64,000 bases of DNA from Candidatus Sericytochromatia bacterium (GTDB taxonomy: Bacteria; Cyanobacteriota; Sericytochromatia; S15B-MN24; UBA4093), in assembly GCA_036676495.1 (NCBI GenBank), contig JAKFCT010000082.1, forward strand, positions 1 through 64,000. Direction: 5' to 3'. The notes under the pieces are model-generated. The model was given only the letters and a program-made list of their open reading frames with translations, was not told the origin of the DNA and did no database searches. How positions within the stretch are numbered: position 1 is the first letter of the stretch; the number at the start of each line of letters is the position of its first letter. This document shows positions 7,877 through 32,511 of this stretch, piece by piece. A program made the position numbers and the translations under genes.

Positions 7877-9769
7877 ATGGCGAGGGCATGGCAATCGCGG
7901 GCTTGGCAATCGCGGGCTTGGCAATCGCGGGCATGGGCATCGCATGCCTGGAAATCGATCGCCTGGCGGTCGGGCGTGCTGTTGGCCTTGTTCGGGGCGA
8001 TCGCCCTGGATCAGGCGGCCGCGCGATCCCAGCAAGCCCCTGAGCGTCCCCCGGGACCGATCTTCGGGATGCAGTCCGTGCCCAAGTTCGACGAGCGTCT
8101 GGGCAAGGGGGCATGGAGCGGCTCTCGGGACCGCGGCATGGCCATGCACCGCGATCTCGGCGTGCGCCTGAGCCGGGAGGGCATGATCTGGCGCCTCTAC
8201 CAGCCGGAGCCGGACGGGAGGGTCCCGCACCAGGACGATTTCGACGACGTCGTCGCGCGCCTCGCCCAGGCCGGGATCGCCCTGCAGTTCATGGTGACCG
8301 AGACGCCGTTCTGGGCCTCGACGGCCAAGGACAAGCGTCTGGCGGACCCGGTTTCCTACCGGCAGGCTCCCCCCGAGGGCCTCTACCGCTCGATCTTCAC
8401 GGACGGCACCGACGTCCCGGGTCCGCAAAAGCGCATCAACCCCGATCATCCTTGGGCCGCCTTCCTCGAGACGGTGGTCCGGCGCTACCAGGGCAAGGTG
8501 CGCTACTGGCAGTGCTGGAACGAGCCCGATTACCCCAAGGGGGTCCTCGAGCCGGCTCCCGGGGATCCGCAGCGCTCGTGGCAAGGGAGCGTCAAGGACT
8601 ACGTCCGCCTGCTCGCGGTCACGCATACCGTGGTCAAGTGGATCGACCCCGAGGCGCAGGTCGTGACGGGAGGGCTCGGTTACGCCTCCTACCTGCAGGC
8701 GATGATCGACCACGGCGCGGGCCCCTACTTCGATCTCCTGGATTTCCACGCCTATGGCTGGCCTGGCTCGGACGAGGCCCTCAAGGCCTTTCTCTCCGTG
8801 CATCAGGCCATGCGCCATGTCCTCGATAGCAACGGCCTTTCCCAGAAGGGCATGCTCTGCTCGGAGACCGGTTACAGCGCCGCCGAGCCCGAGATCCAGG
8901 CCGAGTACATCCTCAAGCTCTACGCCACGACCCTGGCGCTGGGGATCGAGGGCACGGTGTACTACAGCAACACCAACCCCAGCTGGCGGCAGATGGGCCT
9001 GGTCGACTGGCGCAGCCTGACCCAGCGGACGGCGGGCTACTGGGCCTACAAGAACGCCTCCGCGGCCCTGGACGGCATGCGTTTCGTCTCGAAGCTGCCC
9101 TTGCCGCCCCAGGCCGTGGGCTACCTCTTCGCCGATCCGTCGAGCAAGCGGGAAGTCGCCGTCCTCTGGGCCCCCTACCGGAAACCCGAGGAGGCCTTGG
9201 CGCTATCGTGGAAGCGCCCCGGCGCGTGGACGCAGGTCACCCCGGAGGGTAAGCACCAAGCGCTGGAGCCCGGGGCGCGCTTACGCCTGCATGCCGGCCC
9301 CGTCATCCTGGATACCGAGGCTGGCGATCGCTACGCGCGGCAGGTCCCCAATCCGCCCCTCTCCCGTAACGGCCTGGCGGTACTGGGGGCTTTGGCCTCC
9401 GGGACGAGCGACGACGGCTTCCATGGTCCGGAGCTGGCGCTCGATGGTGATACCGACAGCCAGTGGATGGGACCGGGCTTCCGCCAGGCGACGGCGTCCT
9501 TCGCGGTGGAGCTGGCCGAGCGATCCGTCATCCGCGAACTACGCCTCAAGACGGGCCCCCTCAAGGGGGCGCGGCTCGATCTTCAGGTCTCCGAGGACGG
9601 CCGTTCCTGGCGAACCGTCCGCGCGGGTGCGACCTTCGAGAGCTGGAAACTGGAGCGCCTGACCCTCCCGAAACCGACGGCCGCCCGCTGGGTTCGCGTG
9701 CTCTGGCGCAACACCCCGGATCGCCGCGCTCCACGCTTCGAGCTCTTCGAGTTGGAGGTCTACGACTAG
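7877..9769 (+). CDS. Secreted clan GH-A glycoside hydrolase with C-terminal discoidin/CBM32-like domain
   Basis: WNEPD acid/base, DFHAYG, SETGY nucleophile; ALDGDTDSQW...VSEDGRSW...ARWVR. Confidence 0.75.
   Translation: MARAWQSRAWQSRAWQSRAWASHAWKSIAWRSGVLLALFGAIALDQAAARSQQAPERPPGPIFGMQSVPKFDERLGKGAWSGSRDRGMAMHRDLGVRLSREGMIWRLYQPEPDGRVPHQDDFDDVVARLAQAGIALQFMVTETPFWASTAKDKRLADPVSYRQAPPEGLYRSIFTDGTDVPGPQKRINPDHPWAAFLETVVRRYQGKVRYWQCWNEPDYPKGVLEPAPGDPQRSWQGSVKDYVRLLAVTHTVVKWIDPEAQVVTGGLGYASYLQAMIDHGAGPYFDLLDFHAYGWPGSDEALKAFLSVHQAMRHVLDSNGLSQKGMLCSETGYSAAEPEIQAEYILKLYATTLALGIEGTVYYSNTNPSWRQMGLVDWRSLTQRTAGYWAYKNASAALDGMRFVSKLPLPPQAVGYLFADPSSKREVAVLWAPYRKPEEALALSWKRPGAWTQVTPEGKHQALEPGARLRLHAGPVILDTEAGDRYARQVPNPPLSRNGLAVLGALASGTSDDGFHGPELALDGDTDSQWMGPGFRQATASFAVELAERSVIRELRLKTGPLKGARLDLQVSEDGRSWRTVRAGATFESWKLERLTLPKPTAARWVRVLWRNTPDRRAPRFELFELEVYD
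7883..7942 (+). repeat. 15-bp tandem repeat (about 4 copies) encoding RAWQS
   Basis: GGGC(A/T)TGGCAATCGC repeated, last copy degenerate. Confidence 0.85.
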
Positions 9770-10730: not shown

Positions 10731-11384
10731 TTGAAGAAATTCACCGTCCTCGCTTCCACGCTTTCCCTCTCCTTGCTGGCGGCCGCTCTCCTCGGCTGTA
10801 ACCCCCAGGCGACCACCGGCGTCGAGAAGCCGGATGAGGCCAAGGCTCTCCTCGAGAAAGGCAAGAAGCTGGCCACCATCGGTGAGTGCATGAGCTGCCA
10901 CACGCCGATCCGTCCGCTGGCGGATGGGACGGTGGGCCCTGACTTCGAGAAGGCCCTGCTGGGCGGCGGCAACGCCTGGCTGACCCCGATGGCGGGTATC
11001 GGCGTCTCTCCCAACCTGACGACGGGGGGTAAGTTCCTCAAGGACTCCGTCGACGAGATCGTCGATACCTGGATGGCCCGCCAGGAGCCCTACCTGCCTC
11101 CGATGCCTCCGATCGGCAAGGTTTACAGCAAGGAAGAGCTCAAGGCCATCGTGACCTACCTCAAGAGCGTTCCCGCGCAGACCGCGCCGGTGCCCGAGAA
11201 CTACTACTTCGCCGGGAAGACGAGCGGCGACGAGACCTGGCCCATGCCCGGCTGGATGGCGGCTCCTGGCCAAGAGGCCCGGATCATTCCCGGCAACCTC
11301 GAGATCTCCATCGCCCCGGGCCTGGCGCAAGCCTTCGGTCAGGACCTCATCAACGCGAACATCGCCTCGTCCAGCGTCAAGTAG
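10731..11384 (+). CDS. Monoheme cytochrome c lipoprotein
   Basis: Lipobox LLGC, CMSCH, SPNLT, PMP distal Met, AIVTYLKS. Confidence 0.8.
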   Translation: MKKFTVLASTLSLSLLAAALLGCNPQATTGVEKPDEAKALLEKGKKLATIGECMSCHTPIRPLADGTVGPDFEKALLGGGNAWLTPMAGIGVSPNLTTGGKFLKDSVDEIVDTWMARQEPYLPPMPPIGKVYSKEELKAIVTYLKSVPAQTAPVPENYYFAGKTSGDETWPMPGWMAAPGQEARIIPGNLEISIAPGLAQAFGQDLINANIASSSVK

Positions 11385-11495: not shown

Positions 11496-12533
11496 ATGCC
11501 TCATAGAAAGCGTATGTCTCGGCCACGTCGCGTCATGGCGACCGCTCTCGGTCTCGGCTTGTTCCTCGCGCTCCCGGGTCCGGGACTCGCGAAGCAGGTC
11601 CGCGAGGTCTTCGGCGATCTCGGGCTCCTGCCGGAGGTCGCGCAACCCGAGCAGAATCCCGCGACGCCGGCCAAGGTCGCGCTGGGCCAGCAGCTCTTCT
11701 TCGATCCCCGGCTCTCCGGAGACGGCAAGCTCGCCTGCGTGAGCTGCCACGTGCCGGCCCTCGGCTGGGCGGACGGTCGCGCCACGGGAGTCGGGGCCGG
11801 GGGGCAGAAGCTCTCGCGCAACGTCCCCACGGTCCTGAACTCCGCTTACTACGCGGGCTTCTTCCATGACGGCCGGGCGAGCTCCCTGGAGGAGCAGGCC
11901 CTCGGCCCGCTCTTGAACCCCCTGGAGATGAACGCGGATCCCCAGCAGGTCGTCCGCACCCTGGCGGGCATCCCCGAGTACCGGAAGCGCTTCCGCGAGG
12001 CCTTCGGGGAGGAGCCGTCCCTGGAGGGCGTGGCCAAGGCGCTCGCCGCCTTCGAGCGGACGCTCGTCAGCAAGGATTCGGCCTTCGATCGCTGGCTCCA
12101 GGGAGAGGATGCGGCCCTGAGCCCCCAGGCGAAGCGGGGCCTCGAGGTCTTCACCGGCAAGGCGGACTGCACGGCCTGCCACAAGGGCCCCAACTTCTCG
12201 GATGGGGAGTATCACAACATTGGGGTGCCGGGCTCGGGCACGACGGACATGGGCCGCTTCGACGTGACCCGCAATCCGGAGGATCGCGGGGCCTTCAAGA
12301 CTCCCTCCCTGCGCAACGTGGCGCTCACGGCGCCCTACATGCACGACGGCTCGATGAAGACGCTTCGGGAGGCCGTGAAGCACTACGAGGAGGTCTCGAT
12401 GGACTTCCCCAACCTCGATCCGCTGATCGAGAACTGGGGAATGACCGAGGAAGAGATCGACGACGTGGTGGCCTTCCTGGAGTCGTTGACGGGAAAGCCG
12501 GTCAACCTCCAGCCCCCCCGCCTACCTGATTAA
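11496..12533 (+). CDS. Diheme cytochrome c peroxidase (bCCP/MauG family)
   Basis: LFFDPRLS, CVSCH, RNVPTVLN, CTACH, FKTPSLRNVALTAPYMHDGS. Confidence 0.92.
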   Translation: MPHRKRMSRPRRVMATALGLGLFLALPGPGLAKQVREVFGDLGLLPEVAQPEQNPATPAKVALGQQLFFDPRLSGDGKLACVSCHVPALGWADGRATGVGAGGQKLSRNVPTVLNSAYYAGFFHDGRASSLEEQALGPLLNPLEMNADPQQVVRTLAGIPEYRKRFREAFGEEPSLEGVAKALAAFERTLVSKDSAFDRWLQGEDAALSPQAKRGLEVFTGKADCTACHKGPNFSDGEYHNIGVPGSGTTDMGRFDVTRNPEDRGAFKTPSLRNVALTAPYMHDGSMKTLREAVKHYEEVSMDFPNLDPLIENWGMTEEEIDDVVAFLESLTGKPVNLQPPRLPD

Positions 12534-12575: not shown

Positions 12576-12929
12576 TTAGAAGGCCTTCGAATCGTCGGGG
12601 GCTCCCGCCGCGATCCAATCCAGGACGTTCTGGATCTCCTCGGCGGTGAAGAGGTTCTTGGCGTAGCGCGCGTCGGTGAGCATGGTGCGGATGCCGGCGC
12701 GGTTGGGCCGGTCGACGGAGTACTGGCCCAGGTCCTTGGGGGCGCCCTTGGCGGCAGGATCCGTCTGGTGGCACTCTTTGCAACTTTCGTGCTCGGTCAC
12801 GGGTTTGACGTGGGTGGTGTAGGTCCGGGTCTTGGGCTGGCCGGCCTGTCCCACGGCTTCCATGCGGTTGGTGCAGCCGGTGGCGAGGAGGGCGATCGCC
12901 GCGCCCAGGAGGATGCCGCGCGTCATCAT
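12576..12929 (-). CDS. Small monoheme cytochrome c lipoprotein
   Basis: MMTRGILLGAAIALLATGC lipobox, TYTTHVKP...CKECH...WIAAGA; start overlaps upstream stop (ATGA). Confidence 0.8.
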   Translation of the reverse strand: MMTRGILLGAAIALLATGCTNRMEAVGQAGQPKTRTYTTHVKPVTEHESCKECHQTDPAAKGAPKDLGQYSVDRPNRAGIRTMLTDARYAKNLFTAEEIQNVLDWIAAGAPDDSKAF

Positions 12930-13723
12930 GAGTCGTCCTCCGTCTCGATCGTGAACTTCCGCTTCGGGAAGAAGGGGGCGTCGAAGTGGGCGTGGTACTC
13001 GAAGCCCACCCGCAGGGTGTCGGTGCCCGGCGAGAAGGTGCGGCCGTAGGTGGTGCCGGGGCCGAAGCGCCCGACCATCAGGAGCATGACGTGCGGGGTG
13101 TCGGGAATCCACCAGGCGAGTCCCGTGGACCAGTTGAAGCCATTGATCTCGATGACGCTTCGGTCGAGAGGGGCCACGATGTCGCCAAGTAGCGCGAAGC
13201 CGTCCCCGAGCGCGTAGGAGAGGCCGGCGCCCGCGGCGGTCATCCAGCCGGGATTGGCGGAGTAGTCGCCCACGTACGAGAAGTAGCGCCCCACGACTCC
13301 CGCGCCGAGGCCGGGCAGGAGATTGTTCTTGGAGGCGGTCACCTCGGCGATGCCGCTGCCTCCGAGGTGGGTGGTGTAGCCCAGCCGGGTGTTGAGGGCG
13401 AAGGGGGCGCCCTCGTACTCGTCCATGGCCTGGTAGCGCATGGCGAGTTCGCCGTCGAAGGGGGTGTTGCGGGTGGAGGCGACGAAGTCGAGGTTGAGCT
13501 GCTGCGAGAGGCCGAGGCCCAGGTTCAGGGCCGGAGCCGAGTCGTTCGGGAAGGTGGCCGCGTTGTAGCGATGGGACATCCGGAGGTACATCTGGCCGCG
13601 CTTGGCGTTGAGCGGCGAGGTGATGCCGGGAGTCCCGTAGTCGAACTGGAAGGCGGCGGCGGGCGCCGCCACGAGGCACGGGATCAGCGTGCCAGCCAGG
13701 AGCCAGGGGAGTTTGCGGCGCAT
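12926..13723 (-). CDS. Probable outer-membrane beta-barrel protein (DUF5777-like)
   Basis: Signal peptide MRRKLPW...AAA-F, alternating beta strands, SHRY and TPHVM motifs; real start is ATG at 13723 inside the longer spurious ORF. Confidence 0.65.
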   Translation of the reverse strand: MRRKLPWLLAGTLIPCLVAAPAAAFQFDYGTPGITSPLNAKRGQMYLRMSHRYNAATFPNDSAPALNLGLGLSQQLNLDFVASTRNTPFDGELAMRYQAMDEYEGAPFALNTRLGYTTHLGGSGIAEVTASKNNLLPGLGAGVVGRYFSYVGDYSANPGWMTAAGAGLSYALGDGFALLGDIVAPLDRSVIEINGFNWSTGLAWWIPDTPHVMLLMVGRFGPGTTYGRTFSPGTDTLRVGFEYHAHFDAPFFPKRKFTIETEDDS

Positions 13724-13734
13724 GGAAGTCCTTT

Positions 13735-15474
13735 CTAGAGGGTGAATCGGGTGACCAGGCTGCGGAGCTCGCTGGAGAGCTTCGTGAGCCCTTGAGCCGA
13801 ACCGGAGACGCGCTCGACGCTCGCGGTCTGCTGGTGGGAGGTGGCGGCGACCTCTTCGGCGCCGGCCGCGGATTCCTCGGAGATGTTGGCGATCGCGTCC
13901 ATCTCGCGGACCATGACCTCGGCGGAGGTGGCGAGCTGGCGGGCGGCCTCGCGGATCTGCTGGATCTCGCGGTCCGTCCGCTCGATGGCCGAGACCACCC
14001 GGTCGAAGGCGTCTCCGGCCTCGTGGATGATGTCCACGCCCTGGGTCACGCCCTGGCTGCCCTGGTGCATGATGGAGACGGCGCGCTGGGTCTCGTCGTG
14101 GATGTTGCTGACCAGCTCGGCGATGTGCTGAGCCGCGTTGCCCGACTCCACCGCGAGCTTGCGGATCTCCTGGGCCAGGACGCTGAAGGCCAGGCCCTGG
14201 TTGCCGACACGGGCCGCCTCGATGCCCGCGTTGAGGGCCAGGAGGTTGGTCTTCTTGGCAAAGCCTCCGATCAGGGTCACGATGGCCTGGATCTGCTGGC
14301 TGAGGGCGCCCAGGCGTTCGACGACTTCCGCGGAGTCCGTGAAGACCCCCTGGACGGCGTCCATGTGGCTGAGAGCGTCTTGCAGGACCCGGTCGCCGGC
14401 AGCGGCGGCGGCGGCGGCTTGCTGGGAGCTCTGGGCGGCGATCGCGACGTTGGAGGAGACCTTTTCGGCGGCGTTGGCGACGGCGAGGGCCTCGTCCGAG
14501 CTCTTGGTGATGCCCCTCACCTGCTCGGTGACACCGATGGCGAGCTGCTCCATGGTCAGGGAGACCTGGTGGGCGCCGGTGCCGGTCTCGTCCGCGGACT
14601 GAGCGAGGGCCTGGCTGGACTCCTGAAGGCGCGAGGAGACCGAGTCGATCTGGGAGACCATGCCCCGCAGCTGGGCGAGGAAGCGGTTGAACCAGAGGGC
14701 GAGCTCTCCGATCTCGTCGTGGCGATCGGCGTTGAGGGTCTTGCTGAGGTCGCCTTCCCCTTCGGCGATGTCGCGCAGCACGGCGATGAGTTCGTGGAGG
14801 GGAGTGGCGATCTGGCGGGCGAAGAGGAAGGCGATGGCCATGGCGAGGCCCAAGGCGATGCCGATGCTGACGAGCAGCTGGATCAGGGAGTTCTTGAACT
14901 CGGCCTGGGCCAGTTTCTTCTGGCGGTCGACTTCTTTTTCGCTGAGGGTGATCAATTCGTCGATCTTGACGTCGACGATCGTGGTCATGAGGCGCACGCC
15001 GCGCGTATTGCTGAGAGCCAGGGCCTGTTGGGTCTTGTTCTGTTCGACCAGGGCGAGGATCTCCTCGTTGAGGGCGGTCCACTCCTCGATGAGGGGCATG
15101 ATCTCGTCGCGGAACTTGGTTTCCTGGGCAGGGTTGGCGAAGAAGCGGAGGAAGGCGCGGCTGGCGCCGTCCATGTCGAGCACCTTGTCCTCGAGCTCGG
15201 GCATGAGGCGTTCGCGCTCCTTGGGGGAGCCGGCGAGGATGTAGTTTTTCTGGAGGCGATCGGCCTGGAGGTTGACCGAGCGGAGGTGGGAGATGGACTG
15301 GCCGCTCTCCATGGTGGTGGCAAGGGTGTCGAGCTGGGTCTTGACCCGGCTCATGGAGAGATAGCCTTCGAGCCCGACTCCGATGAGGAGCGCGAGCATG
15401 AAGATCATCATGAGGAAGAGCTTGGTGAGGATGCGTCGGTTGCGTAACCAGACGAAGGGGTTGAAGCTGCGCAC
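13735..15474 (-). CDS. Methyl-accepting chemotaxis protein
   Basis: Two TM segments around a helical periplasmic domain, HAMP (DEIGELA), signalling tip TNLLALNAGIEAARVG. Confidence 0.93.
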   Translation of the reverse strand: MRSFNPFVWLRNRRILTKLFLMMIFMLALLIGVGLEGYLSMSRVKTQLDTLATTMESGQSISHLRSVNLQADRLQKNYILAGSPKERERLMPELEDKVLDMDGASRAFLRFFANPAQETKFRDEIMPLIEEWTALNEEILALVEQNKTQQALALSNTRGVRLMTTIVDVKIDELITLSEKEVDRQKKLAQAEFKNSLIQLLVSIGIALGLAMAIAFLFARQIATPLHELIAVLRDIAEGEGDLSKTLNADRHDEIGELALWFNRFLAQLRGMVSQIDSVSSRLQESSQALAQSADETGTGAHQVSLTMEQLAIGVTEQVRGITKSSDEALAVANAAEKVSSNVAIAAQSSQQAAAAAAAGDRVLQDALSHMDAVQGVFTDSAEVVERLGALSQQIQAIVTLIGGFAKKTNLLALNAGIEAARVGNQGLAFSVLAQEIRKLAVESGNAAQHIAELVSNIHDETQRAVSIMHQGSQGVTQGVDIIHEAGDAFDRVVSAIERTDREIQQIREAARQLATSAEVMVREMDAIANISEESAAGAEEVAATSHQQTASVERVSGSAQGLTKLSSELRSLVTRFTL

Positions 15475-15885
15475 TTACTTCTCGAGCTTTTCTTTGACGT
15501 AGCCGCTCCAGTCCGCCGGAACGGGGCCGAAGCCGTCTTTGGGGAGGGAGGAGACGAAGGTGACCAGGTCGATGAACTGGGCGTCGCTGAGCTCGAGCTG
15601 GGCGTCTTCCTCGAGGTGTTTGAGGGTCTTGGCGATGAGCTTCTTCTCGCTGATGCGGCTGGCGCTCTCGATGAGGTTGGGGATTTTCTTGCCGCGGATG
15701 ACCTCGCCGGTGGTGAGGCCGATGGGGTGGCAGGTCATGCAAGCTTGGCCCTTCTTGCCCTTGGTGAGGAAGAGGATCTTGCCTTTATGGCGATCGCCGT
15801 CGAGGGCGGCGTGGGCGTTCGGGGTGAGGAAGGGGGTCAGGACGATGGCGATCGTGGCTGCGGCGAGCCAGTTCCGATACAGCAT
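15475..15885 (-). CDS. Periplasmic monoheme cytochrome c
   Basis: Signal peptide ending AHA, KGKILF...CMTCH, DLVTFVSSL; SD AGGAGG. Confidence 0.8.
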   Translation of the reverse strand: MLYRNWLAAATIAIVLTPFLTPNAHAALDGDRHKGKILFLTKGKKGQACMTCHPIGLTTGEVIRGKKIPNLIESASRISEKKLIAKTLKHLEEDAQLELSDAQFIDLVTFVSSLPKDGFGPVPADWSGYVKEKLEK

Positions 15886-16049: not shown

Positions 16050-16085
16050 GAAAAAAACGACGAGCCCCCCGTGAGGGGGGCTCGT
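16050..16085 (-). terminator. Intrinsic terminator of tRNA-Leu(CAG)
   Basis: ACGAGCCCCCC-loop-GGGGGGCTCGT followed by a T-run on the minus strand. Confidence 0.8.
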
Positions 16086-16088
16086 GAG

Positions 16089-16171
16089 TGCGGATGAGAG
16101 GATTTGAACCTCCACAGGGAAATCCCTACATGCTCCTGAGGCATGCGCGTCTGCCGTTCCGCCACATCCGC
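16089..16171 (-). tRNA. tRNA-Leu(CAG), CCA not encoded
   Basis: GCGGATGTGGCGGAACGGCAGACGC...CATGC-CTCAGGA-GCATG, long variable arm, GGTTCAAATCC; TTGTCC-17-TAACAT promoter upstream. Confidence 0.95.
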
Positions 16172-16232: not shown

Positions 16233-16658
16233 TCAAAGTCCCCGCGCCACGGAGGGGTAGTCCTCGGGGGTGATCACGCCCTCGTCGAGCAGGGTTTGGG
16301 CCAGGGCCTCCAGCAATTGCCGGCGCTTGAAGGGTTTCGAGAGGTAGTGGGTGCAGCCCGCCGCCATGCCGCTCTGCTGGTCCGAGCCGGAAGCCTTGGC
16401 CGAGACGCAGATGATGGGAAGTTTGCGGGTCCGCGGGTCGGCCCGCAGGGCCTGGCTGGCCTCCAGCCCGTTCATCACCGGCATGAGGATGTCCATCAGG
16501 ACCGCGTCGACCTGCAGCCCCTCGTCATGGAGCAGCTTCAGGGCCTCCTGGCCGTCCGCGGCCGTGGTGACCCGGTGGCCGGCGCTCACGAGGATGATCT
16601 CCGCGATTTCCCGGTTCGAAGGTTCGTCCTCGACGACCAAGACATTCAAGGCTCTCAT
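16233..16658 (-). CDS. Single-domain response regulator (CheY/DivK-like)
   Basis: VLVVEDE, VLMDILMPVMNG, SAKA, YLSKP. Confidence 0.9.
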   Translation of the reverse strand: MRALNVLVVEDEPSNREIAEIILVSAGHRVTTAADGQEALKLLHDEGLQVDAVLMDILMPVMNGLEASQALRADPRTRKLPIICVSAKASGSDQQSGMAAGCTHYLSKPFKRRQLLEALAQTLLDEGVITPEDYPSVARGL

Positions 16659-16735
16659 GCCCATCATGGTAGCATTGCCCGCCCCGGGAGGGGCTTGGGG
16701 GGTTTGAACGGCATCGGCGCGGGAAAGGGGACAGC

Positions 16736-17227
16736 ATGGCCAAGATCGCGATCCTCGACGACGAACCCGAGGTCGTGACCCTCCTTTCGCGCTTCCTCAC
16801 CGAGCGCGGCGACGCCTTCATGCGCCGGGTCGGCGACACCGCCCGCGTGGCCGCCCAGGTCGTCGCCTTCCAGCCGGATCTGATCCTGATCCCGCTCTAC
16901 CGCCCCTTCCACCTCATCGCGCACCCCCTCACGGATTTCTTTCACGACGTGCGCGGGGCGGGCATGCTCGACATGATCGTCCGCATCCCCGCCCTGCAGG
17001 ACGTCCCGTTGATCCTCTTCAGCTTCTCCGTGCGCCCCGACGAACTGCCCCCCAATCTCATCGGGCGCTGCAAGGCCTTCTTGATGTTCCCCGAGGGCCT
17101 GCACGAGCTCAATCCCACCATCAGCGGCTTCGTCGGACCCGCCCAGGGCAGCCTCGACGACCTGCGTCGCCTCCGCGGCGAGCCCCCCCTCACGCCCCTC
17201 CCGAACCCGGACGATCCGGACGCGTGA
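16736..17227 (+). CDS. Atypical (pseudo-)receiver domain protein
   Basis: KIAILDDEP and PDLILI, but Pro at the phospho-acceptor position. Confidence 0.65.
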   Translation: MAKIAILDDEPEVVTLLSRFLTERGDAFMRRVGDTARVAAQVVAFQPDLILIPLYRPFHLIAHPLTDFFHDVRGAGMLDMIVRIPALQDVPLILFSFSVRPDELPPNLIGRCKAFLMFPEGLHELNPTISGFVGPAQGSLDDLRRLRGEPPLTPLPNPDDPDA

Positions 17228-29569: not shown

Positions 29570-29975
29570 GGTTCAGGGACCTCCCTTGGCGTTGGAACCT
29601 ATCTTGAATCTGTACATCGGCATGAACCCAAGCGTTATTGCTGCCCGGAAGTGACGGTCGGCGATGGGGACCACGACGCCGAGTGCGTTCGCGATGCAAG
29701 CGAGCGTCCGCTGTTTATTATAGGTCGTTGAGGAGCAAGCATGTCGCCCATGAGACTGAGCCAAACTCACCGGGGGCGAGGGGACAGTGGGAGTGCTCGC
29801 GTGCTACCATGCCCTTGCAGTGCGGTCACATCGTCCTTTGTGGGCAGGAGAGTTGCTAATGCCGGAAGCCGATCCGATTGAGGTTCTGTGGCTTCCGGAG
29901 GATGTCGAGTCGTTCCTTGGGACGGTTCGAGCGTCAGAAGAATCGCTTCTCTGATTGGGCAGTGGAGTCGATCGG

Positions 29976-30407
29976 ATGGAACAACGTCTCACACTCATCA
30001 CGCTTGGCGTCGCGGACCTTGTTCGGTCGCGTCGCTTCTACGAATCTGGGATGGGTTGGAAGCCCGTACCCGGGGATCATGAGGGCGTCGCCTTCTATGA
30101 CCTCGGAGGGTTCGGTCTTGCCCTTTACGGCTTCGAGGGCCTTGCCTCTGATACCGGCCTGCCACCTGTAACCGCAGGGTCAAGCGCGATGTCGCTCGCC
30201 TTCAACGTGGACTCGGCTGAGCAAGTGGACCGAATCTTGTCCGAAGCGATTGCCGCAGGGGCAACGATGCTCAAGCCTGCTCATAAGGTCTTCTGGGGTG
30301 GGTACTGTGGGTACTTCGCCGATCCGGATGGCCATGTCTGGGAGATCGCCTGGAACCCCTTCTGGAAGCTCGATGAGTCGGGGCGCATTGTGGCTTGGCA
30401 GGTATGA
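29976..30407 (+). CDS. VOC/glyoxalase family protein
   Basis: LITLGVADLxRSRRFYE, FWGGYxGYFADPDGHVWEIAWNP. Confidence 0.9.
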   Translation: MEQRLTLITLGVADLVRSRRFYESGMGWKPVPGDHEGVAFYDLGGFGLALYGFEGLASDTGLPPVTAGSSAMSLAFNVDSAEQVDRILSEAIAAGATMLKPAHKVFWGGYCGYFADPDGHVWEIAWNPFWKLDESGRIVAWQV

Positions 30408-30961
30408 CAGCGAGCCCTGACTTCGGAGCCAGCCCGAGACCGAAGACCATTCTCGAGACCGACCGGCTCATCCTCCGCGAGATGACCGATGCTGACGTCG
30501 AGCCCCTGCTGAAGGTGCTCGGGGATTCGGTCGCCATGAGGTACTACCCTGCCCCTTATACCCGCGAGGGCGTCGAGGGGTGGGTGCATCGGAGCCAGGA
30601 GCGCTACCGGACCTATGGATTCGGATTATGGGCCGTCGTCCTGAAGGAGACCGGTGGAGTAGTTGGCGATTGCGGGCTTACCCTACAGACCGTCCAGGGC
30701 CGTGAGGAGCTGGAGATCGGCTATCACATCCAGCGAGAGTACCAGGGCAAGGGGCTCGCTACGGAGGCTGCCCGAGCGTGCCTCGAGTGGGGCTTCCGTA
30801 ACACGAGTTGCGATCGGATCATCTCGCTGATGAACGTCGAGAACCTGCCGTCGCGTAGGGTGGCCGAGAAGGTCCACGCCCGGTTTCTCGGGGAGTGTGG
30901 GGAACGCGCCGGCCTTCCTCACGTCTACTACGGGACTGAGCGGTCGGAGTTTGAATCGTAG
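30404..30961 (+). CDS. GNAT acetyltransferase (RimJ/RimL family)
   Basis: LETDRLILR, EIGY, QGKGLATEAA, NLPSRRVAEK. Confidence 0.9.
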   Translation: MTASPDFGASPRPKTILETDRLILREMTDADVEPLLKVLGDSVAMRYYPAPYTREGVEGWVHRSQERYRTYGFGLWAVVLKETGGVVGDCGLTLQTVQGREELEIGYHIQREYQGKGLATEAARACLEWGFRNTSCDRIISLMNVENLPSRRVAEKVHARFLGECGERAGLPHVYYGTERSEFES

Positions 30962-30999
30962 ACAATTTGGTTCTGGTCTTGATGGTCACTTCAGCCGTG

Positions 31000-31818
31000 T
31001 CACGCGTTGATGAGTATCCAACCTGACTTCCGATAGTAGCTGGCAAGCATGTGTTCGATGAACCTGCGGATGAGCTTGTCGTCGAGGTCGGATTCCGAGA
31101 TGCTGGCCTCGCCCAAATTGAAGGGCTGGAAGCGTAGGACATCGAGGCTGATGGATATTCCCTCCTGGATGAAGCCTTCAAAGAGCTTGTTAAGTCGCCA
31201 GGAAGTCTGTTGCCGCGGGTAGGGATTGAGGTAATTCCCGATCCGCCTCGGCAAGTTCACGGTTTCCCCGATGTAGAGCTGACCAAGGTCACCCGGGGTT
31301 TCACGAAACGGCACCCATCGGTAGATCGCTGGCTGCTCAAGATTGACTCGCATCCATTTCGACACCTTGGTCGGGAAGCGGTAGGCGTTGAGGCCATCTT
31401 CGAGGATCGGTTCCCAGGTGAACTCGAATGCCGTATGGAGAGTCGGCAAGGTGAGCGACATTGGGTCGGGGAGTGAGTCTGGGAGAACTGGGGCAACAGG
31501 TTCTCGAGGCGTGGAAATGTCTACAGGGGACGGAGCAATCAACCGGGGTATCGATTGGTTTTCAGCTGGCTTAGCGTTCGGGACTTGATGAGTCAGCCAG
31601 CTAACCAACTTCGTAGAGCCGCAATAGGCGCAGCGGCCAGCCTCTTTCGAAATCAGCCCTTTGATGAGGAGTTTTCTGCCCTCGCGATTGGCATCCTGGC
31701 GTTGTTTCAGGGGACCTCGTTTGGCGAGGCAGTCGTCACACATGGGGCCATTGGCTCCGTCCAGTTGTTTCAAGATCAGCTGCTGGATCGTCTGCTGCAT
31801 CGCCTTCCGAGTCCTCAT
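31000..31818 (-). CDS. Hypothetical protein: N-terminal CxxC...CxxC domain plus GIY-YIG-like domain
   Basis: CDDC, CAYC; AIYRW...LYIGETxNLxRRI; lower GC than the flanks. Confidence 0.6.
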   Translation of the reverse strand: MRTRKAMQQTIQQLILKQLDGANGPMCDDCLAKRGPLKQRQDANREGRKLLIKGLISKEAGRCAYCGSTKLVSWLTHQVPNAKPAENQSIPRLIAPSPVDISTPREPVAPVLPDSLPDPMSLTLPTLHTAFEFTWEPILEDGLNAYRFPTKVSKWMRVNLEQPAIYRWVPFRETPGDLGQLYIGETVNLPRRIGNYLNPYPRQQTSWRLNKLFEGFIQEGISISLDVLRFQPFNLGEASISESDLDDKLIRRFIEHMLASYYRKSGWILINA

Positions 31819-31920
31819 CGTCCAAGGGGTATCGTCAATTTACCCGTAGTAGGCCATGGCCACCCTTGGGGAGTGAGAAGTTGACCAAGAACCGGGGGAT
31901 CCTCACACTAAGGGGCCTCT

Positions 31921-32290
31921 CTACTCATCCATTGCCGATAAACCGCCGATGGATTGCCGATAAATTTCCGATAATCCGAATGCACGCGATCGGAGGGAGG
32001 CCTCCAGTACGACCAACCAACCGGCCTCGACCCATTCCAGCTGAGGTTCCGGGCCATCCGGTCGGAGAGGCCCAGGAGCTTCGCCATGTCGGCGGTGGTG
32101 ATGGTCTCCCGTTTGGCGAACAAGCCCAGGACCATCCGATAGTTCGGACCTCGCCCACGTCCCGCTCGCGCCCATGGAACTCGGCGTGCCGTCCCTCGAT
32201 GGCCTGCTCGGCCTCTGCGAGCGTCAGGCGGTTGCCCCCGATGCGGGTCAAGTAGTGGGTCGAACGGATCCGCGCCCGGTGGCACAGCTC
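31921..32290 (-). pseudogene. Fic-family gene remnant (Fic domain deleted, frameshifted)
   Basis: IRSTHYLTRIGGNRLTL N-terminal motif joined out of frame to a C-terminal HTH fragment (MAKLLGLSDRMARNL / WVEAGWL); no HPFxxGNGR. Confidence 0.65.
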
Positions 32291-32304
32291 GGCCTTCCCT
32301 GAAG

Positions 32305-32356
32305 TAAAAAAGAGTGATGCGGCCCTCGGCGAAGAATCGCTGAAAGCCGCATCACT
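32305..32356 (-). terminator. Terminator of tRNA-Leu(CAA)
   Basis: AGTGATGCGGC...GCCGCATCACT stem, then T6 on the minus strand. Confidence 0.7.
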
Positions 32357-32364
32357 GCATGTAG

Positions 32365-32446
32365 TGGCCAAGGTGGGAGTCGAACCCACACGCCTTTCGG
32401 GCGGTCGATTTTGAGTCGACTGCGTCTGCCATTCCGCCACTTGGCC
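32365..32446 (-). tRNA. tRNA-Leu(CAA), CCA not encoded
   Basis: GGCCAAGTGGCGGAATGGCAGACGC...GTCGA-CTCAAAA-TCGAC, variable arm, GGTTCGACTCC; TTGCGC-17-TAGAAT promoter. Confidence 0.95.
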
Positions 32447-32511
32447 GCGGAAGAGTTTTATTCTACGCCAAGCGCTCTCGGCGCGCAAGCATCGATTGCG
32501 AGAAGCCGCGT

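Follow-up and report, generated by a model that had tools for sequence, protein, structure and literature searches.

The window analysed here is a 64,000-nucleotide stretch of contig JAKFCT010000082.1 (positions 1 to 64,000, assembly GCA_036676495.1) from an uncultured Candidatus Sericytochromatia, a soil bacterium and non-photosynthetic relative of the cyanobacteria. In it, four adjacent minus-strand genes encode a secreted monohaem c-type cytochrome (cytA), a methyl-accepting chemotaxis protein (MCP), a predicted outer-membrane beta-barrel and a lipoprotein cytochrome. We found that these genes belong to a conserved island whose periplasmic sensor domain is shared with sister genera, where it is joined to a phosphatase. 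We tentatively favour, at slightly less than an even chance, the reading that this is an envelope redox island with its own sensor, the output of which has been rewired to flagellar taxis in the genus of the window, possibly with cytA docking on the sensor. The source genome (4.14 Mb, 106 contigs, 67% G+C, 92% complete) is labeled G000 in the comparisons below.

The island was compared across 41 related genomes, six of which carry it: G000, G001 and G002, all of one genus, and G005, G006 and G008, from two other genera of the same family. In exactly the same 6 of the 41 genomes, searches recovered a barrel of at least 67% identity together with cytA, the sensor (at E ≤ 1e-10) and the lipoprotein (at E ≤ 1e-48); at that sensor threshold, the 35 relatives without cytA and a close barrel yielded no sensor. 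One genus is split, with all four components present in G006 and none in the 100% complete G003, which returned only a weak partial match to the lipoprotein (E 7e-16). The order cytA-MCP-barrel-lipoprotein is kept in G001 and G002, where coordinates also place cytA and MCP 0 nt apart. In G005, G006 and G008, cytA and the barrel are immediate neighbours and no MCP intervenes, such that in all six island genomes cytA adjoins the barrel or is parted from it only by the MCP.

The strongest tie between the receptor and the island comes from its sensor. The MCP matched the Pfam domains 4HB_MCP_1 (E 1.2e-11), HAMP (1.1e-10) and MCPsignal (PF00015; 1.7e-35, 122.8 bits against a cut-off of 34.6), its N-terminus is conserved from the GTG start onward, and the architecture is identical in all seven homologues. 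In the sister genera the island encodes a protein of 527-540 amino acids with a transmembrane (TM) helix, a four-helix-bundle (4HB) sensor, a second TM helix and a SpoIIE/PP2C domain, and in G005, G006 and G008 this gene adjoins a homologue of the 217-aa lipoprotein cytochrome found near the cluster in the window. A search with MCP residues 1-225 returned these island 4HB-SpoIIE proteins as the best matches (G005, 6e-34; G006, 1.5e-34; G008, 1.4e-30) at 31-36% identity, with the next best match at only 7e-9. The reverse search with the G008 protein returned the island MCPs of G000, G001 and G002 (E 1e-29 to 7e-32). The two forms align across the entire periplasmic domain, and polar positions Q59, E86-R87, R106, R110-F111 and W132 are invariant across both. 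No solved relative of the sensor domain was found by sequence; the domain lacks Cys, so it carries no covalent haem. By reciprocal best match the island sensor is orthologous across genera, with its output swapped between phosphatase and chemoreceptor, and this orthology together with the co-occurrence argues that the island MCP is not a mere passenger.

The original prediction had made conservation of the MCP beside the cytochromes a point on which it would stand or fall. That expectation held for the sensor, which stays with the island in the sister genera, but not for the MCP gene itself, which is confined to one genus. Its further proposal, that haem feeds chemotaxis, is supported in part, in that sensor orthology and co-occurrence in 6 of 41 genomes tie the receptor to the cytochromes, to which a predicted complex of cytA and the sensor (below) adds weakly. 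The host is, judged from its genes, motile and chemotactic, with about 21 MCP-signal places in the genome and, all over cut-off, 8 CheW-domain and 3 flagellin-N places.

The arrangement of the four genes (Table 1) suggests a single transcription unit. The cytA stop codon TAA directly precedes the GTG of the MCP (gap 0 nt), 11 nt part the MCP stop from the barrel, and the ATG of the lipoprotein overlaps the TGA of the barrel as ATGA (4-nt overlap). Between the four genes, their strand showed no terminator-like site, and no sigma-70-like promoter was found upstream of the cluster in a search that is uninformative for such a lineage. Every detail that was checked in the initial description proved correct, namely four minus-strand genes with gaps of 0, 11 and -4 nt, a cytA with one later His and no Met behind its haem motif, an MCP with a periplasmic sensor (confirmed by its domains and two TM helices), and a lipoprotein that lacks the usual MP distal motif. 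Adjacency of an MCP and a cytochrome alone is not beyond chance: CxxCH motifs occur in 48 of 3594 open reading frames (ORFs) in a crude gene call of the genome, and 1 of 18 MCP-like ORFs, the island MCP, has a CxxCH neighbour within two genes, where about 1 is expected. What exceeds chance is the conservation.

Table 1. Coordinates in the window of the four-gene cluster, the sensor domain and accessory or bounding features.
Feature	Coordinates	Strand	Description
cytA	15885..15475	minus	secreted monohaem c-type cytochrome, 136 aa, signal peptide ending AHA/A, CMTCH
MCP	15474..13735	minus	579 aa, GTG start; TM1, periplasmic 4HB sensor, TM2, HAMP, MCP signalling domain
Periplasmic 4HB sensor domain of MCP	14890..15357	minus	residues about 40-195
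Barrel	13723..12926	minus	265 aa, signal peptide, predicted 12-stranded outer-membrane beta-barrel, divergent DUF5777 relative
Lipoprotein cytochrome	12929..12576	minus	117 aa, monohaem, lipobox LATGC, CKECH, M83, C-terminal DW..AG.P.D
tRNA-Leu(CAG) and terminator-like hairpin	16060..16171	minus	upstream boundary of the cluster; strong hairpin at 16085..16060
217-aa lipoprotein cytochrome c	10731..11384	plus	accessory island member, monohaem, CMSCH, PPMP
Dihaem cytochrome c peroxidase (CCP/MauG family)	11496..12533	plus	accessory neighbour convergent with the cluster; PF03150, 5.1e-62

We next consider the cytochrome that abuts the receptor. On the basis of its Sec signal, single CxxCH (residues 49-53) and predicted helical fold, cytA is assigned to the class I c-type cytochromes. 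The motif CM.CHP and the pair K89-H90 are invariant in 16 of 16 homologues. H90, within LKHL, is the only His after the haem motif, and Met is absent from that region in the 16 homologues except directly behind H90 in two of them. At the position of H90 the paralogues of cytA (45-51% identity) carry Phe, with a Met following seven residues on, which suggests that the island cytA has changed its probable sixth ligand, with the Met of the paralogues probably replaced by His. Because cytA has no Cys outside the CxxC it cannot form a disulfide. In 3 of 3 loci the paralogues adjoin a prokaryotic cytochrome b561 gene (PF01292), the start of which they overlap (G000 contig C96, L037:4612-5597, minus; L038; L039). 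On contig C96 a GAF histidine kinase gene is divergent from this pair.

Assignment of cytA to a named cytochrome family was attempted and dropped, since the nearest families all fall below thresholds. No Pfam or NCBIfam model scored over its cut-off. Sub-threshold matches were obtained to the SoxA/TsdA domain in 16 of 16 members (best E 3.6e-4), to Cytochrom_C in 15 of 16 (best E 0.0034) and to DUF1924 (PF09086, the SHP family) in 5 of 16 (best E 0.025), and a search of the genome with PF09086 gave no match on cytA. Against solved structures the cytA profile reached SHP at E 0.014 and cytochrome c'' at E 0.15, next to a spurious sortase at 0.013. An AlphaFold2 (AF2) model without haem was of low confidence (pLDDT 61), with H90 inside a predicted helix spanning residues 80-93, and Foldseek returned no match to it at E ≤ 0.001. 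In the Atlas, cytA lies near SoxX-like clusters with a score of 0.94 and only 143-154 shared features.

A complex was predicted from mature cytA, haem and a pair of sensor domains (residues 40-195 of each), alongside three controls. The cytA-sensor dimer scored an ipSAE of 0.54 (runs of 0.54, 0.60 and 0.52) and the best control 0.01. The pLDDT of the partners was at least 87, and the runs share at least 92% of contacts. In calibration, 116 of 157 solved complexes attained the ipSAE mark, as did 2 of 215 mismatches; a passing score of 0.60 or under was found for 18 of the 157 solved complexes and for both of the passing mismatches. The interface that the original prediction had looked for is predicted and passes its controls weakly, and the result lends weak support to docking of cytA on the sensor dimer.

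The third gene encodes what is predicted to be a 12-stranded outer-membrane barrel with a signal peptide. The AF2 model, built from an alignment of 29 relatives, has a pLDDT of 81.4 and a pTM of 0.77. Its best structural matches by VIA-align were FapF (Z 18.7, root-mean-square deviation [rmsd] 3.1, 198 aligned), KdgM (Z 17.8, rmsd 2.6, 169 aligned), the COG4313 channel (Z 16.7, rmsd 3.5, 196 aligned) and NanC (Z 16.6; Foldseek E 7e-8), with PcoB at rank 18 (Z 11.7, rmsd 4.0, 172 aligned). As far as a model can speak to it, the product is beta-barrel-like as first proposed and not a soluble protein. Eight positions (H51, G165, D181, W198, P210, H211, G227 and G240) are invariant across the 29 sequences, and no solved relative was found by sequence.

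No Pfam or NCBIfam model matched the barrel protein, with 0 Pfam families at E ≤ 1, and the DUF5777 model (PF19089) found nothing in the whole genome at E ≤ 10. That model does match 8 of the 29 aligned relatives (best E 3.9e-8) and 11 of 105 profile matches, 2 of them over cut-off. In the Atlas, 27 of the 30 clusters nearest to the barrel are DUF5777, the top three scoring 0.96-0.97 with 188-192 shared features. Kinship with DUF5777 thus appears remote, running through intermediates and language-model features. No literature naming DUF5777 was found in a search that did not extend to subscription journals.

The relatives of the barrel are commonly associated with small electron carriers. A profile search of 1.84 billion representatives returned 249 clusters at 50% identity with E ≤ 0.001, 56 of them at E ≤ 1e-30. 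Architecture was scanned in 105 of the 150 listed matches, leaving out P0002 and 44 others that are mostly fragments shorter than about 240 residues. Among the 105, a C-terminal cupredoxin is present in 54 and a C-terminal cytochrome c in 6, and one is joined to a TonB-dependent receptor. The source genome itself encodes two such fusions. A paralogue on contig C100 (29762-30880; L034:4763-5881, minus), apparently alone among unrelated genes, has a C-terminal amicyanin/plastocyanin-like cupredoxin with the motif HCTPHPFM (NCBIfam amicyanin, 6e-14). On contig C67 (17245-18951, minus) a barrel is followed by a Pro/Ala/Lys-rich linker of about 130 residues and a cupredoxin-like domain (…YHCRLHPQETG…) without the usual Met ligand, a layout suggestive of a carrier held to the outer membrane by a tether that spans the periplasm. 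Profiles of cytA and the lipoprotein gave no significant hmmsearch match to the C-terminal cytochrome domains of the fused barrels; the fused carriers are not homologous to either protein, suggesting that the barrel accepts different carrier families.

More distant relatives within the class are 30-35% identical to the barrel and often have a His/Asp/Glu/Cys-rich N-terminal tail. In the nine class-level loci a YceI gene adjoins the barrel in five, a signalling gene (histidine kinase, CHASE2 cyclase or CheB) is adjacent or close in three, and the nearby haem lipoproteins are of the cytochrome c type, or of the P460 type at one locus. In two class-level relatives (L029:3211-4374 and L032:5623-6831) YceI and a haem lipoprotein, of the cytochrome P460 type in L032, precede the barrel, which is directly followed by glutamyl-tRNA reductase (hemA) and a pyridine-nucleotide disulfide oxidoreductase. 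A midpoint-rooted FastTree of the barrel domains set the window clade and the His-tail class-level clade against the fused forms, which we take as a hint only. Judged from these gene associations and fusions, the core of the island is a barrel with small one-electron carriers.

The lipoprotein cytochrome, with its lipobox, single CxxCH and helical fold, is likewise assigned to the class I c-type cytochromes. It has no 'MP' motif, but M83 is invariant in 6 of 6 homologues, which refines the initial observation that a distal Met motif was lacking. Pfam Cytochrom_C matched one of the six members below cut-off, and no solved relative was found. A haem-PAS fold was considered, with matches to Mcp40H-20_sensor in 3 of 6 members (best E 0.0038) and to the Tll0287-like family in 2 of 6 (best E 0.004), and was rejected because these matches span only about 25 residues around the haem motif. 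Two further genes frequently accompany the cluster. The 217-aa lipoprotein cytochrome is present in 5 of the 6 island genomes and in 0 of the 35 others at E ≤ 1e-8, and cytochrome c peroxidase (CCP) lies in the island of three of the six (G000, G008 and G002, the last with two copies). The G002 copies form a tandem duplication (locus L018, 2492-4485) and are 67% and 73% identical to the enzyme in the window. CCP is missing from the island of G001.

These observations are consistent with the following model. A barrel of the DUF5777 superfamily would be the core of the island, working with one-electron carriers that comprise cytA in the periplasm and the haem lipoprotein, with the second haem lipoprotein and CCP as frequent companions. 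Because cytochrome b561 lies beside the cytA paralogues, electrons from the quinol pool may reach the periplasmic cytochromes, from which they would be passed outward to an outer-membrane site provided by the barrel and the lipoprotein cytochrome. The most likely task would be the handling, at the outer membrane, of some oxidant or redox-active compound, such as peroxide, lipid radicals, O2 or NO; oxidants and lipid radicals are suggested by the presence of CCP in three of six islands, of YceI at the class-level relatives, and by a described YceI-b561 system (below). In the sister genera the 4HB sensor would drive the PP2C/SpoIIE phosphatase, and in the genus of the window the same sensor has been joined to an MCP signalling module behind cytA, so that the island signal would steer flagellar swimming. 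The sensor would report the same condition that the island handles, through docking of cytA or through a small ligand, and the most likely input is the state of cytA itself, which we propose to dock on the sensor dimer. 'Redox-taxis system', the name given in the original prediction, seems fair as a working name, its basis being comparative (sensor orthology and co-occurrence) together with one weak structural prediction.

A more specific version of this model, which we consider possible though rather unlikely, is a split haem chemoreceptor. Here cytA, with a labile His90 (or Lys89) ligand, would report redox poise or bind O2, NO or peroxide and would dock on a haem-free 4HB receptor that steers swimming. 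The sister-genus pair would drive PP2C partner-switching, and the barrel and lipoprotein would link the sensor to the cell surface.

Several findings weigh against the redox island with a rewired sensor. The MCP is confined to one genus, and elsewhere cytA abuts the barrel directly. The six island genomes are kin from only three genera and not independent samples. The sensor gene of the sister genera lies nearest to the 217-aa lipoprotein cytochrome and not to cytA, and some of the loci lack the link to CCP, as some lack that to YceI. The model of cytA without haem is poor, and no cytochrome family scored above cut-off for it. The docking score falls in a band where wrong predictions outnumber right ones unless the pairing was already probable, and its calibration did not extend to our own alignments or to an accompanying haem.

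Sensor orthology and co-occurrence would fit equally well if the sensor reads a small molecule directly, for example a substrate or product of the island such as peroxide, a quinone-like compound or a metal ion, with the cytochromes as co-workers and not co-receptors. Binding of small ligands at the dimer interface is common among 4HB sensors, as in Tar and NarX, several polar sensor positions are invariant across both output types, and the neighbour of the sister-genus sensor is a different cytochrome. Within the genus, however, cytA and the MCP stay abutted at 0 nt, the cytA-sensor fold passed its controls (weakly), and a Pfam scan and sequence search of solved structures recognised no known ligand-binding motif in the sensor, and we regard direct ligand reading as unlikely. 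A passenger role for the chemoreceptor, in which a cytochrome operon happened to receive one of about 20 MCP genes with an unrelated sensing task, is improbable. Such an origin would explain why the insertion is genus-specific, why one MCP with a CxxCH neighbour is just the chance expectation, and why the island MCP is the weakest full-length MCPsignal match in the genome (125 bits against 150-182), but it would leave unexplained that its sensor and the 4HB-SpoIIE sensor in the sister-genus island are reciprocal best matches and that the sensor goes undetected, at E ≤ 1e-10, in the 35 relatives without cytA and a close barrel.

Two other readings concern the barrel. The original prediction had suggested a trans-envelope haem relay in the style of porin-cytochrome pairs, and a miniature conduit of this kind to extracellular metal (Fe or Mn), Cyc2- or Mtr-like and with taxis toward the substrate, could draw on the one-electron carriers fused in 60 of 105 barrel relatives, on a lipoprotein cytochrome that could sit at the outer membrane, and on Cyc2, which pairs a single haem with a barrel and oxidises dissolved Fe2+ (PMC8406198). 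We find this relay unsupported and the conduit very improbable, because a barrel of 12 strands, against 16 in Cyc2 and 26 in MtrB (PMC8406198), is too narrow and all of its partners are monohaem. Moreover, the fused relatives carry their carrier C-terminally, where Cyc2 has it N-terminally, the island has no multihaem or predicted extracellular cytochromes, and in fold the barrel comes closest to small channels for solutes and polypeptides. Least probable of all, to the point that we give it little credence, is a unit handling copper or another metal in the manner of PcoB/CopB, with the cytochromes changing the oxidation state of the metal. The His/Asp/Glu/Cys-rich tails of class-level relatives, the blue-copper domains that make up most fused partners and the presence of PcoB among the fold matches (Z 11.7) point in that direction. 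The barrel of the window has no His-rich tail, however, PcoB ranks 18th and well below the KdgM/NanC/FapF-type barrels, and no Cop, Cus or Pco genes lie nearby. Cupredoxins, moreover, serve in electron transfer and not in copper traffic.

Other features of the window were noted in passing. Just upstream of the tRNA that bounds the cluster lies a gene for a CheY-like receiver-domain protein of 144 aa (16233-16667, minus), and divergent from it an ORF of 163 aa (16736-17227, plus) with only faint receiver-like similarity; both are kept in G002 and not in G001. A 630-aa secreted protein (7877-9769, plus) combines an N-terminal tandem RAWQS repeat with a C-terminal F5/8 type C (discoidin) domain. 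The stretch 29900-32450, with ORFs of 150, 188 and 272 aa, has a G+C content of 0.59 against about 0.67. A tRNA (32365-32446, minus) marks its end, and it is possibly a small islet of acquired DNA.

The locus can be set beside several described systems. In E. coli, apo-TorC binds the periplasmic helical-bundle region of the sensor kinase TorS and inhibits the kinase (PMC8534201, citing Ansaldi et al. 1999). The likeness is a c-type cytochrome as the proposed protein input to a haem-free four-helix-bundle periplasmic sensor. TorC, however, is a membrane-anchored pentahaem protein that acts in its apo form whereas cytA is soluble and monohaem, the output there is a histidine kinase and here a chemoreceptor or PP2C phosphatase, and binding here rests on a weak in-silico pass. 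The Geobacter chemoreceptors GSU0582 and GSU0935 also link a periplasmic c-type haem to MCP signalling but hold it covalently inside a PAS-like sensor domain (PMC3460858, PMC8396549), while the 4HB sensor here is free of Cys and the haem protein is the product of a separate gene.

For cytA itself a parallel is with SHP-type cytochromes, in which a non-Met sixth ligand in a helix leaves on reduction, O2, NO and CO are bound, and operons include a membrane cytochrome b and often sensor genes (PMC2909971; bioRxiv 10.64898/2026.01.22.701106). Like SHP and cytochrome c'' (CytB-DHC operon), cytA is a class I cytochrome with an insertion that precedes the haem motif and a putative sixth ligand other than Met in a predicted helix; it also resembles them in having paralogues beside a membrane cytochrome b, and in the frequent clustering of sensor genes. 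It differs in having no disulfide after the ligand and no dihaem partner, and the sequence matches are at noise level, so that we treat the resemblance as a lead and not as membership.

With Cyc2 and MtrCAB/PioAB (PMC8406198) the island shares an outer-membrane barrel genetically coupled to c-type cytochromes; it departs from them in its predicted strand number, its exclusively monohaem cytochromes and its separate carriers (C-terminal in the fused relatives), and no sequence relation was found. The BcnA-LcoA pair, a YceI lipocalin and a cytochrome b561, detoxifies lipid peroxyl radicals (PMC9113575). It recalls the b561 beside cytA paralogues in 3 of 3 loci and the YceI beside barrel relatives in 5 of 9, but neither gene is in the island of the window, and that account describes no barrel or c-type cytochrome. 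DUF5777 proteins are likewise small barrels whose genes adjoin those of haem or copper electron carriers or are fused with them; here, in contrast, the Pfam model misses the protein, the partner is a soluble cytochrome without the Met, and the island includes a dedicated 4HB sensor. The original prediction had not recognised the arrangement as a described system, and a literature search (Sericytochromatia chemotaxis, haem chemoreceptors, barrel-cupredoxin fusions, energy taxis), which did not extend to subscription journals, found no description either. We conclude that the locus is a variant of barrel-carrier modules and of chemoreceptors with accessory periplasmic proteins, both of which are known.

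Partnerships or fusions of small outer-membrane barrels with one-electron carriers are widespread (249 clusters), and the locus extends this theme to the Sericytochromatia and to a large cupredoxin-fused group. It shows such a module travelling with a dedicated periplasmic sensor whose output is swapped between phosphatase and chemoreceptor, and hints at an undescribed form of envelope redox sensing. The sensor domain and cytA are both small and soluble, which offers an experimental way in. If cytA is the input, this would be the first chemoreceptor to read a separate periplasmic cytochrome, and so a new class of chemoreceptor input, and could plausibly guide taxis in soil along gradients of oxidant or redox state. 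For the DUF5777-type barrels and their carriers, an unstudied family, it would offer a first point of entry to function.

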